Shown one piece after another: positions 6,137 to 44,550 of a stretch of DNA of 64,000 nt (its first letter is position 1; each line of letters begins with the position of its first letter). The notes under the pieces are model-generated. The model ran no database searches and had not been told where the DNA came from. It saw nothing but the letters and a program-made list of their open reading frames with translations. The stretch is from Candidatus Minusculum obligatum (lineage in GTDB: Bacteria; Patescibacteriota; Minisyncoccia; Phycocordibacterales; Phycocordibacteraceae), in NCBI GenBank assembly GCA_045401155.1, contig CP174360.1, positions 159,035 through 223,034 of the forward strand, given 5' to 3'. The position numbers and the translations under genes are program-made.

Positions 6137-6181
6137 TATGAAATAGAAGACCGCCTACGGAAGCGCTCTTCCATAGGCGGT

Positions 6182-6478: not shown

Positions 6479-6579
6479 GGTGTGTCCCTCTTCAGATTGA
6501 AAGTTCTATAGGCTCTTTTAACTATACAACATAAACTAATCAAGTGTCAATTTATACTTGATTATGCTACAGTCCACCT

Positions 6580-8773: not shown

Positions 8774-9142
8774 CAGAATACTCCTTTCCCAATTCAGAAG
8801 ATAATACAAATAAAAAATAAGCGCAATGCGCTTATAAGGTGTCTTGGAGATGAGGCTGTGCACGCAGCCTCATCTCCATATGTCTGGAAAGATATTCATC
8901 AGACTGACGATGGGAACATAACTCCACCGGGCTGGCTGAATCTTGTTGCAAGAGGCTCAAATGAGCAGTGGCGCCCCTCAGGGCGCCGCCTAGTACGCTG
9001 CTCCGACAAGATCTCTTTATTGAAGCGGGCGGAATAACTTCTTTAACTTGATGATTGCCGGAAATCATCAAGTTTTGACCTGAGACCAAACCGTCCCTGA
9101 CCAATGTGCGTACCAGGCTCTGCGAGAGAGTATATAGTAACT

Positions 9143-11112: not shown

Positions 11113-11138
11113 AGGGGACAGTATAGCAAAATGCTACT

Positions 11139-11777
11139 ATGTCCCTAATGCAAAAGACGCTTCTACTTATAGGACCCGGAGAATACTTTGGCGCAGCGCT
11201 CATAAAAGCTTTTAATAATGCTAACTACCAAATAGCTGTTATCACAGGAAGGGAAGAAACGATACAAAAGCTACAACAAGCAACAGGCATAGAGATGCGC
11301 CATAAGATAGCTGACATCACAAATGCAGAAGATCTCAGGGCACAAACAAAAGAACTCTGTGAAGAAGTGAAGAATATCACCTGTCTCATCTACAATCCTA
11401 AGATGAGCCCAAAGGGAACAGGACTTGAGATCTCTCAAGAAGTATTTGAAAAAACACTCTCTGTAAATGTGGGAGGACTACTTACAATCGTACAAGAAGC
11501 ACTCCCGTACCTAGAAGGAGGGAGCGTGCTGGTAACTGGTGGCGGGTACAAAGACACACCTGATCCTGATAAATTTGCGCTCTCAGTAGGGAAAATGGCC
11601 CTCCACGGAGCATATACAACACTCGCACCAGTACTAAAAGAAAAGAATGTAGTAATGGGAACGGTGATTATAGATGGTGCTGTACGAGAAGACTCATCTA
11701 TTACGCCAGATATGGTTGCAAAGGCATTTCTAACAATGGCAGAAGAAAATAAAGGAGGGGAAGTATATATACGATAA
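11139..11777 (+). CDS. NAD(P)-binding Rossmann-fold oxidoreductase (short-chain dehydrogenase/reductase-like)
   Basis: N-terminal LLLIGPGEYFGAALIKAF glycine-rich dinucleotide-binding motif and a VTGGGY motif. Confidence 0.55.
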   Translation: MSLMQKTLLLIGPGEYFGAALIKAFNNANYQIAVITGREETIQKLQQATGIEMRHKIADITNAEDLRAQTKELCEEVKNITCLIYNPKMSPKGTGLEISQEVFEKTLSVNVGGLLTIVQEALPYLEGGSVLVTGGGYKDTPDPDKFALSVGKMALHGAYTTLAPVLKEKNVVMGTVIIDGAVREDSSITPDMVAKAFLTMAEENKGGEVYIR

Positions 11778-11786
11778 AACAAAAAC

Positions 11787-11822
11787 CGCCCAACAGGAGC
11801 CGGGCGGCTTCTGTTGGGCGGC
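11787..11822. terminator. bidirectional hairpin terminator between convergent genes
   Basis: ccgcccaacag...ctgttgggcgg 11-bp stem. Confidence 0.6.
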
Positions 11823-11834
11823 GAAATGAAATGA

Positions 11835-12248
11835 TCAGGGCGCTTCGTCTTCAGTAAGATCGATTTTCAGACGTTGGAACGTACGTGCCTTCGTCTTGTT
11901 GTCGAACTTGTTGATACCGTAGAACGACATGTCATCGTTGTAGTAGAAGGTGACGTGCCATTCATGGAAGTCGATGCTGCTCTTGGACTCAAGTGGCAGC
12001 CAGCCGTTCTCGTCAGTGTGCTTGAGCACAATGACGCCACAGATGGCATCCTCGTCGCTGCCGATCTGGACCCCAATATTCATCGTATCGTTGCTGTCCA
12101 CGAAGGACCTTTGCAGCTTCAGATGTCCGTGTCCCAAGTCTTGGAGCTCGCCAACGCTATGCTTCAGGGCGCGGGCTACCTGCCAGAAATGGTAGATACC
12201 GACGGCAGTGCCGAGTCCGATCGTATTTTCATTCAAGGTGCTTTTCAT
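11835..12248 (-). CDS. hypothetical 137-aa protein; GC-rich orphan cassette C3
   Basis: About 56% GC against about 46% in the flanks. Ribosome-binding site is 'aaaggggaaagaaaaATG', and it has its own promoter and operator. No homology recognised. Confidence 0.5.
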   Translation of the reverse strand: MKSTLNENTIGLGTAVGIYHFWQVARALKHSVGELQDLGHGHLKLQRSFVDSNDTMNIGVQIGSDEDAICGVIVLKHTDENGWLPLESKSSIDFHEWHVTFYYNDDMSFYGINKFDNKTKARTFQRLKIDLTEDEAP

Positions 12249-12323
12249 TTTTCTTTCCCCTTTTGGAAACGGAACCGCTTGATTGCGACACCGACCACAC
12301 CATTAGTGGATTTACTAACAAAA

Positions 12324-12352
12324 ATAGTACATAAAATGTACTATTTTGTCAA
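12324..12352 (-). promoter_or_regulatory. sigma70-like promoter (TTGACA-17-TACTAT) with a perfect 7-3-7 palindrome (agtacat-aaa-atgtact) overlapping the spacer and -10
   Basis: Read directly from the minus strand. Located between the ftsK stop and the C3 start. Confidence 0.55.
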
Positions 12353-12363
12353 GTATCTATTAC

Positions 12364-14511
12364 TTACCGTTCTTCCTCGTATTCCTCATCCTCATACCCG
12401 TCATCCGCGCCGCGGGTTAAGACTTCTCTAGGTTTTGAGCCATCTGCAGGGCCAATAACACCCTTATCTTCTAAGATATCCATAAGGCGAGCAGCACGAG
12501 CATATCCAACACGTAGCTTGCGCTGTAGATATGATGTAGAGGCTTTTCCAGCTGCTTCTACGCAGGCTTTTGCCTCTCCGTATAGTTCATCCTCATCTTC
12601 ATCATCATCGATGCTCATCATAGCGTCATTTCCTTCATGAGAGCCATTTCCAGATGGTGCTGCAAAATCAATATTTGAAGTATCACCTGCATTGTGTTTC
12701 TTGATGTAAGCCACAACCTTCTTCACCTCAGACTCTGAGATAAACGCAGTCTGTAGACGAATCGGCTTACTCATATCTCCTGATAGGAAGAGCATGTCTC
12801 CAGCTCCAAGAAGCTTTTCAGCTCCTCCCATATCAAGAATCGTCTTAGAGTCGATCTGACTTGCCACCTGCAGTGCCATTCGAGAGGGAACATTGGCCTT
12901 AATAAGTCCGGTCACCACATTTACCGATGGGCGCTGCGTTGAAAGTACCAAGTGGATACCAACGGCACGACTCATCTGTGCAAGACGCACAATGCCTGCC
13001 TCAAGCTCTCGAGGATATGCTTGCATGATGTCGGCAAGCTCATCTACCACCACTACAATGTATGGCATGGTCTCTGCATCCTCCTTCTCCTTAGCAACCT
13101 CATGGTATGAGTTGATATCGCGACATCCAACCTGCTCAAGTACGTTGTACCGTCGATCCATCTCCTTAGCGGCCCACTTAAGGGCAAGAATAGCTTTCTT
13201 AGGATCGGTGATCACTGGTGTAAGAAGGTGAGGGATACCGTTATATAGCGTCAGCTCCACACGCTTCGGGTCAACCATAATAAAGCGCATCTCATCTGGA
13301 CCATTTCGATATAGAAGGGAAGCGATCAAAGTATGAATCGCTACAGACTTTCCTGAGCCAGTTGCTCCGGCAATAAGGCCGTGTGGCATCTTGGCAACGT
13401 TTACGTAGTGCGGCTCTCCGGTAATATCCCGTCCCACAGCAGAGAGTAGGGGCTTGTCACTGCTCTTCCACTGAGAAGAAGTAAGAAGTCCTGCAAGACC
13501 AACCATGGCCTTAGAGGTATTTGGCACCTCAATACCAACCAAGCTCTTTCCAGGAATTGGAGCTTCAATACGTACAGGGTGTGCTGCAAGGGCAAGCTCA
13601 AGGTTATTTTGAAGTGAAAGAATCTTAGATAGACGAACACCCTCAGCAGGCTTAATCGCGTAGCGCGTCACGGTAGGGCCGATGGATACCTCATCCATCT
13701 CTACATCAATACCAAAGTTTGAGAAGGTGCGCTTGATCAAATTAGCGTTGGCTTTGATATCTCCCACACCTGGCTTTCCTTTATCCTTTCCAAGTAGATC
13801 TACAGGAGGTGCGTTATACGCTCCGAAGGTCTTGATGGTTGGATCTTCATCACTCTCTCCATCGCCATCATTATCGGTAAACACATTTACCGATGGTTCC
13901 TTCTCTTCTTCCTCATCTTCTTCTACCTCTTCCTCTTCTTCCTCAAATTCATCTTCCTCCTCCTCATCATCCCCATACGCTTCTACGTGCACATCTTTTT
14001 CTTTCTTTCCAAAGAAAGATGACATCTTGAAAGAGGGAAGTGAGTTATCAAAACTAAACTCAAACCGAAATAGGAGAATGGCACCAATAAGAGAAAAGGC
14101 GATCAAAAATAGCGTTGCTCCTGCAACTCCAAAAAGAGATGCCAAACCTCCTGAGATAAGAGACCCAACCAATCCACTATCTAGTGGCGTAAGTGCAATA
14201 AGAGATAACAGCGATGCAATTAAGAGCACGCCTCCTACAGAACTTCCAATAGGAATCTCTTCCTTCCATGAAGTGAAGAGTAATGCTCCTAAAGATAGAA
14301 ATGCCAGGGGAATGAGAATGTACCCATGTCCCAACAGTGTTGTTCCTAATCCATATACTGCCTCTCCTGCAGGTCCTGCGGCCCCTATCGCTGCAATTGC
14401 GAAAAACCCTCCTACTGCTAATGAAGCAATTGCAAATACAATGGGTGGAATTACTGATCCAAACTCACGCTCATCTTTGCGTGGTCGTCCTCTCTTACGT
14501 TTACGCGCCAT
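12364..14511 (-). CDS. ftsK: DNA translocase FtsK/SpoIIIE
   Basis: N-terminal TM region, an acidic Glu/Asp linker, a motor domain with GATGSGKSVAIHTLIASLL, and a C-terminal gamma winged helix (SYLQRKLRVGYARAARLMDILE). Confidence 0.9.
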   Translation of the reverse strand: MARKRKRGRPRKDEREFGSVIPPIVFAIASLAVGGFFAIAAIGAAGPAGEAVYGLGTTLLGHGYILIPLAFLSLGALLFTSWKEEIPIGSSVGGVLLIASLLSLIALTPLDSGLVGSLISGGLASLFGVAGATLFLIAFSLIGAILLFRFEFSFDNSLPSFKMSSFFGKKEKDVHVEAYGDDEEEEDEFEEEEEEVEEDEEEEKEPSVNVFTDNDGDGESDEDPTIKTFGAYNAPPVDLLGKDKGKPGVGDIKANANLIKRTFSNFGIDVEMDEVSIGPTVTRYAIKPAEGVRLSKILSLQNNLELALAAHPVRIEAPIPGKSLVGIEVPNTSKAMVGLAGLLTSSQWKSSDKPLLSAVGRDITGEPHYVNVAKMPHGLIAGATGSGKSVAIHTLIASLLYRNGPDEMRFIMVDPKRVELTLYNGIPHLLTPVITDPKKAILALKWAAKEMDRRYNVLEQVGCRDINSYHEVAKEKEDAETMPYIVVVVDELADIMQAYPRELEAGIVRLAQMSRAVGIHLVLSTQRPSVNVVTGLIKANVPSRMALQVASQIDSKTILDMGGAEKLLGAGDMLFLSGDMSKPIRLQTAFISESEVKKVVAYIKKHNAGDTSNIDFAAPSGNGSHEGNDAMMSIDDDEDEDELYGEAKACVEAAGKASTSYLQRKLRVGYARAARLMDILEDKGVIGPADGSKPREVLTRGADDGYEDEEYEEER

Positions 14512-14617
14512 ATACAAAAACCATTGTAGCACGGGGATTTTTAGGGCATAGCAACTAAAGATGCGCAAGTTGCATACGACATGTAGGACACGTATACTAC
14601 GCTATAAGACAGTCTAA

Positions 14618-15331
14618 ATGACTGATACAATCATGTCTTATAGTAACGAAATATCAGTAAAAGACATTCAAAAGAAAGGCATTAATGTCCTTGATAACTC
14701 CATTGTTACTAACGTTTTCCTAAAAGACTACAAAAAGGCATACAACTATAAAAAAGCAGAAAAACTTTCTCTTGCCGTGCACGTCGTGCTCGCACATGTA
14801 GAAGATAAAAAGGGAGTGACCGATATCCTAAGCGAGCGATCTCTCACGCTCGTACGAGAGATACTCCACAGCCAAACAATCCAAACTCCAAGTAAAACTA
14901 TTTTGGAAATTATTTCTCTCATTCAGGTAGGGGAGACAACTGGAGTTTTGGCAACTAAAAATGCAGAACTTTTGGCACGTGAGTATCACTTTTTGCTAAG
15001 TAATATCTGTGAGCAAAAACCACAGAGCATTGATTTAGATACTGAGGTGGAAGTAGAGGAAACACCTGCTCCTAAGAAGGTATTCATTCGAACAGCGCCA
15101 TCTACTACACAATCTCAAGATAAAGGACATAAAGGACATCCTGCAGATCGTAAAGGACATGTGCTTGAAATAATTAAAAATAATGGAAATGTGGGCATCA
15201 AAGACATTGCAAAAGAGGTAACTGATTGCAGTGAGAAAACAATCCAACGAATCCTAAATACATTGATTGAAGAAGGGCGTGTAAAGAAGGAGGGGGAGCG
15301 TCGCTGGAGCACGTATCACTACGTTTCGTAG
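14618..15331 (+). CDS. hypothetical protein with C-terminal winged-helix DNA-binding domain (putative transcriptional regulator)
   Basis: C-terminal 'IKDIAKEVTDCSEKTIQRILNTLIEEGRVKKEGERRWSTY' resembles a DeoR/MarR-type winged helix-turn-helix (wHTH). Confidence 0.45.
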   Translation: MTDTIMSYSNEISVKDIQKKGINVLDNSIVTNVFLKDYKKAYNYKKAEKLSLAVHVVLAHVEDKKGVTDILSERSLTLVREILHSQTIQTPSKTILEIISLIQVGETTGVLATKNAELLAREYHFLLSNICEQKPQSIDLDTEVEVEETPAPKKVFIRTAPSTTQSQDKGHKGHPADRKGHVLEIIKNNGNVGIKDIAKEVTDCSEKTIQRILNTLIEEGRVKKEGERRWSTYHYVS

Positions 15332-19247: not shown

Positions 19248-19280
19248 TCCACGTTAGTAACTCTGTAAGTTAACTAAAAC

Positions 19281-19308
19281 AAAAAACCGCCCTCGGGCGG
19301 TTTTTTGT
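19281..19308 (+). terminator. rho-independent terminator
   Basis: aaaaaaccgccctcgggcggtttttt. Confidence 0.8.
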
Positions 19309-19396
19309 TATGCATACGTTATACATATGTTGTACACATAGTTATGCACAATAGAATGCTATAACTATAGTAATTACAACGATTAGATAACGAATT

Positions 19397-30740: not shown

Positions 30741-30919
30741 TTTCATTCAGGAAATGTTCTTTGTTTATTGAGGGGTGTTGGCCGAGCGGTTAAAGGCAGC
30801 GGGCTCGTCAGCCCGTGAGTTGGGAATCGTATGTCCCAGTACAACTCATCGCAGGTTCGAATCCTGTACACCCTGCCAATAAACTTTTTGACAATCTTCG
30901 GATTGTCTCCTGAATGAAA
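30741..30919 (+). other. intervening sequence inserted in 23S helix 45, closed by a perfect 12-bp inverted repeat (tttcattcagga / tcctgaatgaaa) and containing a tRNA-like element
   Basis: Alignment to the E. coli helix-45 region shows about 180 extra nt between 'ggttcgcgga' and 'tccgtgagcgg'. The flanks are perfectly complementary, and an inner 7-bp stem gtttatt/aataaac also brackets the tRNA-like core. Confidence 0.7.
30772..30878 (+). tRNA. class-II tRNA(Ser)-like element with encoded CCA, embedded in the 23S helix-45 insertion; anticodon loop is 6 nt (TCGTCA), so possibly a non-decoding pseudo-tRNA
   Basis: Acceptor GGGGTGT/ACACCCT, D arm TGGCCGAGCGGTTAAAGGCA (matches bacterial tRNA-Ser), anticodon stem CGGGC/GCCCG, a roughly 35-nt variable hairpin (GAGTTG...CAACTC), T arm GCAGG-TTCGAAT-CCTGT, discriminator G and CCA. 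Confidence 0.45.
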
Positions 30920-42904: not shown

Positions 42905-44362
<1,458 letters not shown>

Positions 44363-44550
44363 GTGGACTTCTTGTACTTTGTACAAGTACGGCGATCATC
44401 TGTTTTACAGATGTGGACATGGCACTCATCCAGAAATGGTGCCCGGCGTACCTACAGTCGGAAGTAGGTCGTTGTGTTGTCGAATTCGCAACATAACGTG
44501 AATAGGCGGAACGAATGAGTATATATTTCAGATTTACGTACACTATGAGC

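Follow-up and report, generated by a model that had tools for sequence, protein, structure and literature searches.

The 586-bp block that separates the genes of an SDR oxidoreductase and ftsK in the small genome of a Patescibacteria member (contig of about 0.58 Mb) is a lineage-specific insertion, which carries a genuine gene under purifying selection, ORF137, of foreign composition. The block was analysed within a 64-kb window, i.e. the whole stretch of DNA under study, and it contains, next to this single gene, a near-consensus promoter covered by a perfect palindrome and a GC-rich hairpin, whose presence and statistical rarity are matters of observation. The original prediction of a foreign orphan gene with a promoter of its own is supported and strengthened by the results, while the regulatory part of it, i.e. 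an operator and a tight regulation of ORF137, is not supported. With somewhat less than even confidence, the block is tentatively interpreted here as a recently acquired, self-contained and insulated single-gene expression unit, in which a hairpin is followed by the promoter, ORF137 and a terminator.

A lineage-specific insertion between the SDR and ftsK genes

The inserted block (11778–12363, minus strand) extends from the stop codon of the SDR gene (stop 11775–11777; gene 11139–11777) to the stop codon of ftsK (stop 12364–12366; gene 12364–14568), and the predicted position of ORF137 directly downstream of ftsK was confirmed. Relatives were located via the neighboring SDR protein, followed by comparison of their contigs; the amino acid identity was 90% in L001, 73% in L002, 55% in L100 and L101, 53% in L003 and about 50% in L097/L098 and L099. 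Five of these relatives (L002, L003, L097, L098 and L099) had an empty junction with the SDR and ftsK stop codons only 4–17 bp apart, and their gene order was conserved as efp, recA, a 141–150-aa gene, SDR and ftsK as far as the contigs reached, with rpsF-ssb-rpsR and tatD also present in the longer loci of this set. The same 586-bp block, with 3.6% divergence, was present in the close strain L001, which comes from an independent sequencing run. In L100 and L101 the same junction is occupied by an unrelated cargo: a gene of 148 aa that bears an AGGAGG motif, together with a hydrophobic protein of 76 aa. The SDR|ftsK junction is a hot spot for gene turnover, and it makes a clean and dated example of gene gain, since the empty state, cargo A and cargo B all exist. 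Apart from the 148-aa orphan, the region 950–1930 of L100 (and also L101) includes a short duplicated fragment resembling the 3' region of ftsK (AACACGTAGTTTCCGCTGC).

The synonymous divergence from L001 was unequal along the locus: dS amounted to 0.114 for ORF137 and to 0.055 for the final 156 nt of the SDR gene, in contrast to 0.39 in the 5' part of the SDR gene and 0.31 at the 3' end of ftsK (Fisher p = 0.0013), and the tract of low divergence stretched from about 11620 to about 12350. The lower dS in ORF137 and in the 3' end of the SDR gene than in the flanks points to a later acquisition or to an exchange by recombination, and it fits a block that is younger than its flanks, acquired after the two strains had diverged and then spread via homologous recombination. 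The unameliorated GC3 of ORF137 agrees with such a recent gain. Given that the Patescibacteria genomes are extremely reduced, a gene that arrived recently, passed between strains and is maintained by purifying selection likely matters to the organism.

ORF137 and its expression signals

ORF137 (11835–12248, minus strand) was confirmed in the sequence as an ORF of 137 aa with an ATG start, coding for a protein of 15.6 kDa with a pI of 5.4, and NCBI lists it, on a 578,798-bp MAG contig of "Patescibacteria group bacterium UBA2103," under ACJKSS_01145 as a hypothetical protein. The plus strand opposite to it bears a longer overlapping ORF of 185 aa, and this was the one chosen by the gene caller on L001. 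The copies of ORF137 in the two strains differ by 15 substitutions within the ORF, and in the minus frame nine of the codon changes are synonymous and five nonsynonymous. The resulting dN/dS, estimated from these 15 substitutions in two sequences only, was 0.16 for ORF137 versus 0.74 for the shadow ORF on the opposite strand; moreover, a GC3 much exceeding GC2 (high GC3, low GC2) is found exclusively in the minus frame of ORF137. The GC content of the gene, given originally as about 56%, was measured at 52.2%, and the true outlier is its GC3 of 0.71 against 0.33–0.41 in the neighbor genes, which bears out its foreign look.

The gene also proved to be an orphan without recognizable domains, as had been predicted. 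It had zero matches in Pfam, NCBIfam, PADLOC and the PDB sequences and a sole match in PHROGs at E = 0.21, while the HMMER search among 1.84 billion representative proteins returned the query itself and two repeat proteins (PKD and WD40), which were discarded as artefacts with scores summed over 4–10 tandem repeats of unrelated proteins. The tblastn search against phages and plasmids gave no match, and the search with the shadow ORF together with back-translated scans of viral and metagenome contigs recovered nothing but L001. Neither a DNA-binding domain nor a transmembrane segment was detected in ORF137, the single ORF of the insert. The AlphaFold check that had been proposed for the protein did produce a mostly-beta model, in which an N-terminal helix is followed by a beta meander, although the confidence of this single-sequence AF2 prediction was low (pLDDT of 49.5 for the full length and 58.6 for residues 33–137), and the fold searches with the low-confidence models yielded weak and generic barrel or meander matches only. 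The protein is soluble, acidic and probably beta-rich. A higher-GC, SD-using donor is proposed for the gene, and most plausibly its role would be an accessory function of the type that turns over at such hot spots.

The near-consensus promoter was confirmed in the sequence as ORF137's own. Its -35 hexamer TTGACA (12347–12352, minus strand) begins 11 nt after the ftsK stop codon and is separated by a 17-nt spacer from the -10 hexamer TACTAT (12324–12329, minus strand), which gives 10 of 12 matches to the sigma-70 consensus (TTGACA/TATAAT) and corresponds to the sequence definition of a sigma-70 promoter (both hexamers, a spacer of 16–18 nt and a position upstream of a gene). Sites with at least 10/12 matches are depleted in the 64-kb window (6 observed versus 23 ± 5.5 in shuffles), and the 23S rRNA, the 16S rRNA, the GC-rich gene C2 and ORF137 each have one of the six upstream, so the match at ORF137 is unlikely to be noise; in the expression style of the host, a -35/-10 promoter is otherwise seen in the window before the rRNA genes and C2. 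On the basis of these hexamers, the promoter would be active and transcription would start so as to leave a 5' leader of about 69 nt (12249–12317, minus strand; the start being placed from the -10 position). This leader had no significant structure (fold z-score of -1.07) and no Rfam family at the gathering score. Inside the 23S rRNA gene itself, a tRNA-like Rfam match (42 bits) was observed at 30772–30875, where ARAGORN made no tRNA call; the Rfam match of the 23S rRNA spans 3156 bases compared to the 2925 positions of the model, and the region 30772–30875 could be an insertion in the gene.

A G-rich SD-like motif, AAAGGGGA (12256–12263, minus strand), is located 7 nt upstream of the ATG of ORF137. 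It had been taken for a ribosome-binding site and is indeed present, but this role is doubtful, because the 3' tail of the host 16S rRNA (window positions 44350–44363) reads GGAUCAAUUCCAAG instead of GGAUCACCUCCUUU and misses the CCUCC anti-SD, and the start regions of the native genes across the window generally lack SD motifs. G-rich SD-like motifs occurred in all three GC-rich genes (C1, C2 and C3, the latter being ORF137) versus 4 of 36 native genes (Fisher p = 0.004). The motif of ORF137 is best read as a sign that the gene came from elsewhere, not as a demonstrated ribosome-binding site of this host. The foreign-style signals, i.e. the SD-like motif, the long leader and the -35/-10 promoter, work or at least persist in a host deprived of the anti-SD. 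In several native genes a -10-like TAnnnT hexamer precedes the ATG by 6–9 nt, an arrangement suggestive of leaderless mRNAs. A pair of back-to-back extended -10 boxes, AGTATAGCAAAATGCTACTAT, was observed at 11119–11141 between the SDR gene and the operon of the 143-aa gene, recA and efp, with each box 7 nt from an ATG. This element, which looks like a compact divergent leaderless promoter, is kept in L001, L002 and L097–L100, down to about 50% protein identity, and is not clearly present in L003. The rpsR-efp interval of roughly 640 bp contained no convincing gene and no Rfam match; an RNA or a gene for a small protein might have escaped annotation there.

The other two GC-rich genes of the window have the following properties. 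C2 (6182–6478, minus strand), the second GC-rich small gene, codes for a Cys/His-rich protein of 98 aa without a significant match in Pfam; it has a promoter at 6521–6550 (TTGACA-18-TATAGT, 11/12), a perfect 9-10-9 inverted repeat around the -35 (TAATCAAGT/ACTTGATTA, 6536–6563) and a terminator of -25 kcal/mol at 6144–6175. At the same metG|tatD junction, L003 contains a 122-aa gene similar to the RNAP alpha-CTD in place of C2. C1 (4206–4541, plus strand), the third GC3-rich gene (GC3 of 0.65, 111 aa), overlaps the start of metG and has a weak sub-threshold match to DUF3307 and an SD-like AAAGGGGG motif. A match with three mismatches to the pattern of the ORF137 palindrome in the promoter region of C1 (4164–4180) was judged coincidental.

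Downstream of ORF137, 13 nt after its stop codon, a GC-rich hairpin (11786–11821, minus strand) with a 16-bp stem and a 4-nt loop reaches a folding energy of -31.5 kcal/mol on the minus strand (z of -6.8) and -33.7 kcal/mol on the plus strand, and in L001 one substitution renders its stem perfect. On the minus strand, as read from the sequence and the fold, it is followed by the U-tract UUUUUGUUUU (11776–11785), while the plus strand past the hairpin reads CGAAAUGA / CGAAAUGAAAUGA, with the U-tract absent. The stretch 11776–11821 corresponds to the definition of an intrinsic terminator and would act as such on the minus strand only. From the bidirectional terminator predicted at 11787–11822, the hairpin remained as real and as ORF137's own terminator, with the position off by one base, and a canonical bidirectional terminator was rejected with the U-tract being confined to one strand. 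The hairpin shares the CCGCCC/GGGCGG outer stem with the bidirectional terminators of this genome but differs from them by having the U-tract at one side. Two further perfect hairpins without T-tracts were also observed within the rpsR-efp interval, at 8845–8878 and 9045–9074 (-27.6 and -13.8 kcal/mol, respectively).

The palindrome overlapping the promoter

The inverted repeat described originally as 7-3-7 (12326–12342) is exact and turned out to be longer, forming a perfect 12-3-12 palindrome, AAAATAGTACAT-AAA-ATGTACTATTTT (12321–12347, without strand assignment), with the half-site ATAGTACAT. It begins at the final base of the -35, reaches 3 nt beyond the -10 and might be either an operator or a terminator/insulator hairpin of ftsK. 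Eight perfect inverted repeats whose arms measure 12 nt or more and whose loops do not exceed 8 nt were counted in the window, versus 0.03 in shuffles, and the counts against shuffles identify both the promoter of ORF137 and the palindrome as real features.

According to the tentatively favored interpretation, the block inserted between the convergent ftsK and SDR genes would work in four steps. The ftsK transcripts would first reach the AT-rich hairpin 12321–12347 with its A- and T-tract flanks, 17 nt past the stop codon. The RNA polymerase would then re-initiate at the near-consensus sigma-70 promoter, and, with the -10 placed inside the descending arm of the hairpin, the new transcript would begin downstream of the hairpin and would not include it. 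The leader of about 69 nt and ORF137 would be transcribed next, and the strong GC-rich hairpin with its U-tract (11776–11821) would finally end the transcription. The part of the palindrome as a terminator is conjectural in this scheme, as is whatever function ORF137 may have.

The role of the palindrome as an RNA hairpin is suggested by its position, starting 17 nt after the ftsK stop, and by its flanks (A4/T4, with "aacaaaaa"), which recall the A-tract/stem/T-tract terminator layout of five of the seven other perfect long repeats in the window. It shares the succession of A-tract, stem, short loop, stem and T-tract and the location after a stop codon with the intrinsic bidirectional terminators of the genome, such as AACAAAAAACCGCCC..GGGCGGTTTTTTGTT at 19278–19309. 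Its energy of -9.7 kcal/mol (-12.2 kcal/mol when extended) comes close to the values of two further weak candidates in the window that combine a hairpin with a T-run (-8.7 and -9.6 kcal/mol), and a hairpin whose stem is the identical core, again with the AAA loop and with A- and T-runs, lies between convergent genes in seven Veillonella species. On the other hand, no other perfect repeat is as weak or as AT-rich (GC of 0.15 with 2 G-C pairs), the clear native terminators reach -14 to -21 kcal/mol, the palindrome coincides with a promoter, and the automated terminator scan made no call at this place. The relatives without the insert have no terminator at all after ftsK, so that one may not be needed. 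Furthermore, a perfect dyad fitting exactly between the -35 and the -10 resembles the promoter-occluding operators, and the promoter of C2 is also under a perfect 9-10-9 repeat, which cannot be a terminator. Weighing these points, a role as an RNA hairpin, i.e. as a terminator or insulator of ftsK, appears at least as likely as that of an operator, and a terminator/insulator overlapping the promoter would rank slightly above it.

The foremost alternative, which is possible but doubtful, is that the palindrome serves as the operator of a dimeric repressor encoded elsewhere, which would occlude the -10 and the spacer and keep the foreign gene off until a signal. The perfect dyad covering precisely the spacer and the -10 of a near-consensus promoter is what would be expected in this case, and the perfect repeat at the C2 promoter adds to it. 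In L001 both arms are identical while the central loop base has changed from A to G; however, only about 2 changes would be expected at the local dS, which makes the identity of the arms uninformative. A very similar perfect 14-3-14 palindrome, CACAAATAGTACAT-CAG-ATGTACTATTTGTG, which shares AAATAGTACAT/ATGTACTATTT with the palindrome of ORF137, was found just upstream of a tRNA gene in the Minisyncoccia MAG L007 (56–80) and hints at a clade-wide site. It is situated there between a tRNA-Arg gene and what appears, by eye, to be the 5' part of another tRNA gene. A candidate regulator might be the 237-aa product of the conserved neighbor gene 14618–15331, whose C-terminal part weakly matches a winged helix (Penicillinase_R, E = 2.9e-4, short of the curated cut-off), but the gene is a conserved core gene with a sub-threshold match and without a similar site upstream, and no regulator gene is present in or beside the 586-bp insert. 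The search for further copies and a regulon, as suggested with the original prediction, gave five matches with up to three mismatches in the 64-kb window versus 3.3 expected, which is near chance, with the exact one only at the site itself. Matches in genomes and metagenomes were heterogeneous and at chance level: 596 Gb of genomes yielded 52 occurrences of the 16-nt core, and metagenome contigs yielded 39 of the 18-nt core, in unrelated contexts; long perfect palindromes flanked by A- and T-tracts are, moreover, terminators elsewhere in this genome. What is left of the "textbook repressor operator" is its dyad symmetry, since additional sites in the 64-kb window and an adjacent regulator gene were not found, and the "tightly regulated" gene lost its basis with the lack of a regulon signal in the window and of an adjacent repressor gene. 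The promoter region of the recA operon (11119–11141) contains the conserved AGTATAGCAAAATGCTACTAT pair and not the ORF137 palindrome, and a paper citing the published study of the Patescibacteria LexA motif reports LexA motifs built as direct repeats instead of palindromes.

An extended version, in which ORF137 represents a new protein family, recently captured and selected, with an rRNA-class promoter gated by a clade-specific repressor at the dyad (A)AATAGTACAT-N3-ATGTACTATT(T), present also before the tRNA gene of L007, is distinctly unlikely; if true, what the islet provides at the hot spot beside ftsK would be an accessory function under regulation, such as a part in conflict or in the interaction with a host. 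Still less likely is a dual use of the same 27 bp, which would both insulate ORF137 from read-through of ftsK as an RNA hairpin and be bound by a regulator as DNA. The hairpin and operator features do coexist at one site, and compact genomes often overlap their signals, but this combination is not parsimonious and both activities would be deduced from the sequence.

Very improbable is a third option, in which an integron-attC-like or MITE-like mobile cassette had its ends or recombination sites in the palindrome and the GC-rich hairpin, and these two would be relics of insertion instead of expression signals. It would suit a hot spot with alternative cargo and a block flanked by two hairpins, one of which, the GC-rich, includes GCCCAAC...GTTGGGC fitting the RYYYAAC/GTTRRRY core pattern. 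However, the two ends of the block are unrelated in sequence and have no other copy within the 64-kb window, a target-site duplication was not seen, and the outer stem and flank of the GC-rich hairpin (AAAAACCGCCC) match native terminators. The known attC sites are at least about 55 bp long with R''/L''/L'/R' boxes and extrahelical bases, while the hairpin here is a shorter, 36-nt near-perfect stem with zero extrahelical bases; with similar repeats absent elsewhere in the window, the identity as an integron cassette or attC was rejected. Least probable of all is that ORF137 is no functional gene and reflects either an ORF arisen by chance in GC-rich DNA or a chimeric assembly, despite a homologue being found nowhere and the longer 185-aa ORF on the opposite strand being called on L001, in view of the dN/dS of 0.16 in the minus versus 0.74 in the plus frame, the GC3 far above GC2 in the minus frame only, the intact ORF in an independent sample at 3.6% divergence of the block and the promoter and terminator in correct positions.

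Comparison with known systems

The palindrome resembles the promoter-occluding dyad operators of the LexA, TetR/AcrR and BlaI/CopY types in having a perfect dyad over the spacer and the -10, and its TACA...TGTA and AGTAC...GTACT half-sites are reminiscent of several operator families. The spacing differs, being TACA-N5-TGTA and AGTAC-N7-GTACT in the palindrome and N2 within TACA-N-TGTA of the cop/bla boxes, and, unlike in these systems, a cognate regulator, a second site and a regulon were not found in the insert and the 64-kb window.

The block has in common with integron gene cassettes a small orphan ORF followed by an imperfect palindrome with RYYYAAC/GTTRRRY-like cores at a variable locus. 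In contrast to those, a promoter belongs to the ORF of the islet itself, an attC would be longer and less perfect than the hairpin, and the block has no integrase gene, attI or cassette array.

The unit behaves like an orphan accessory islet of the strain-specific ORFan type at an intergenic hot spot. Similar to such islets, it consists of one small gene of atypical codon composition with its own expression signals and without homologues, and the junction where it lies is vacant in relatives and holds different cargo in another relative. It differs from them in its host, an ultra-small Patescibacteria genome without the anti-SD, in which the leader and the SD-like motif of the islet are foreign to the leaderless-looking style of several native genes.
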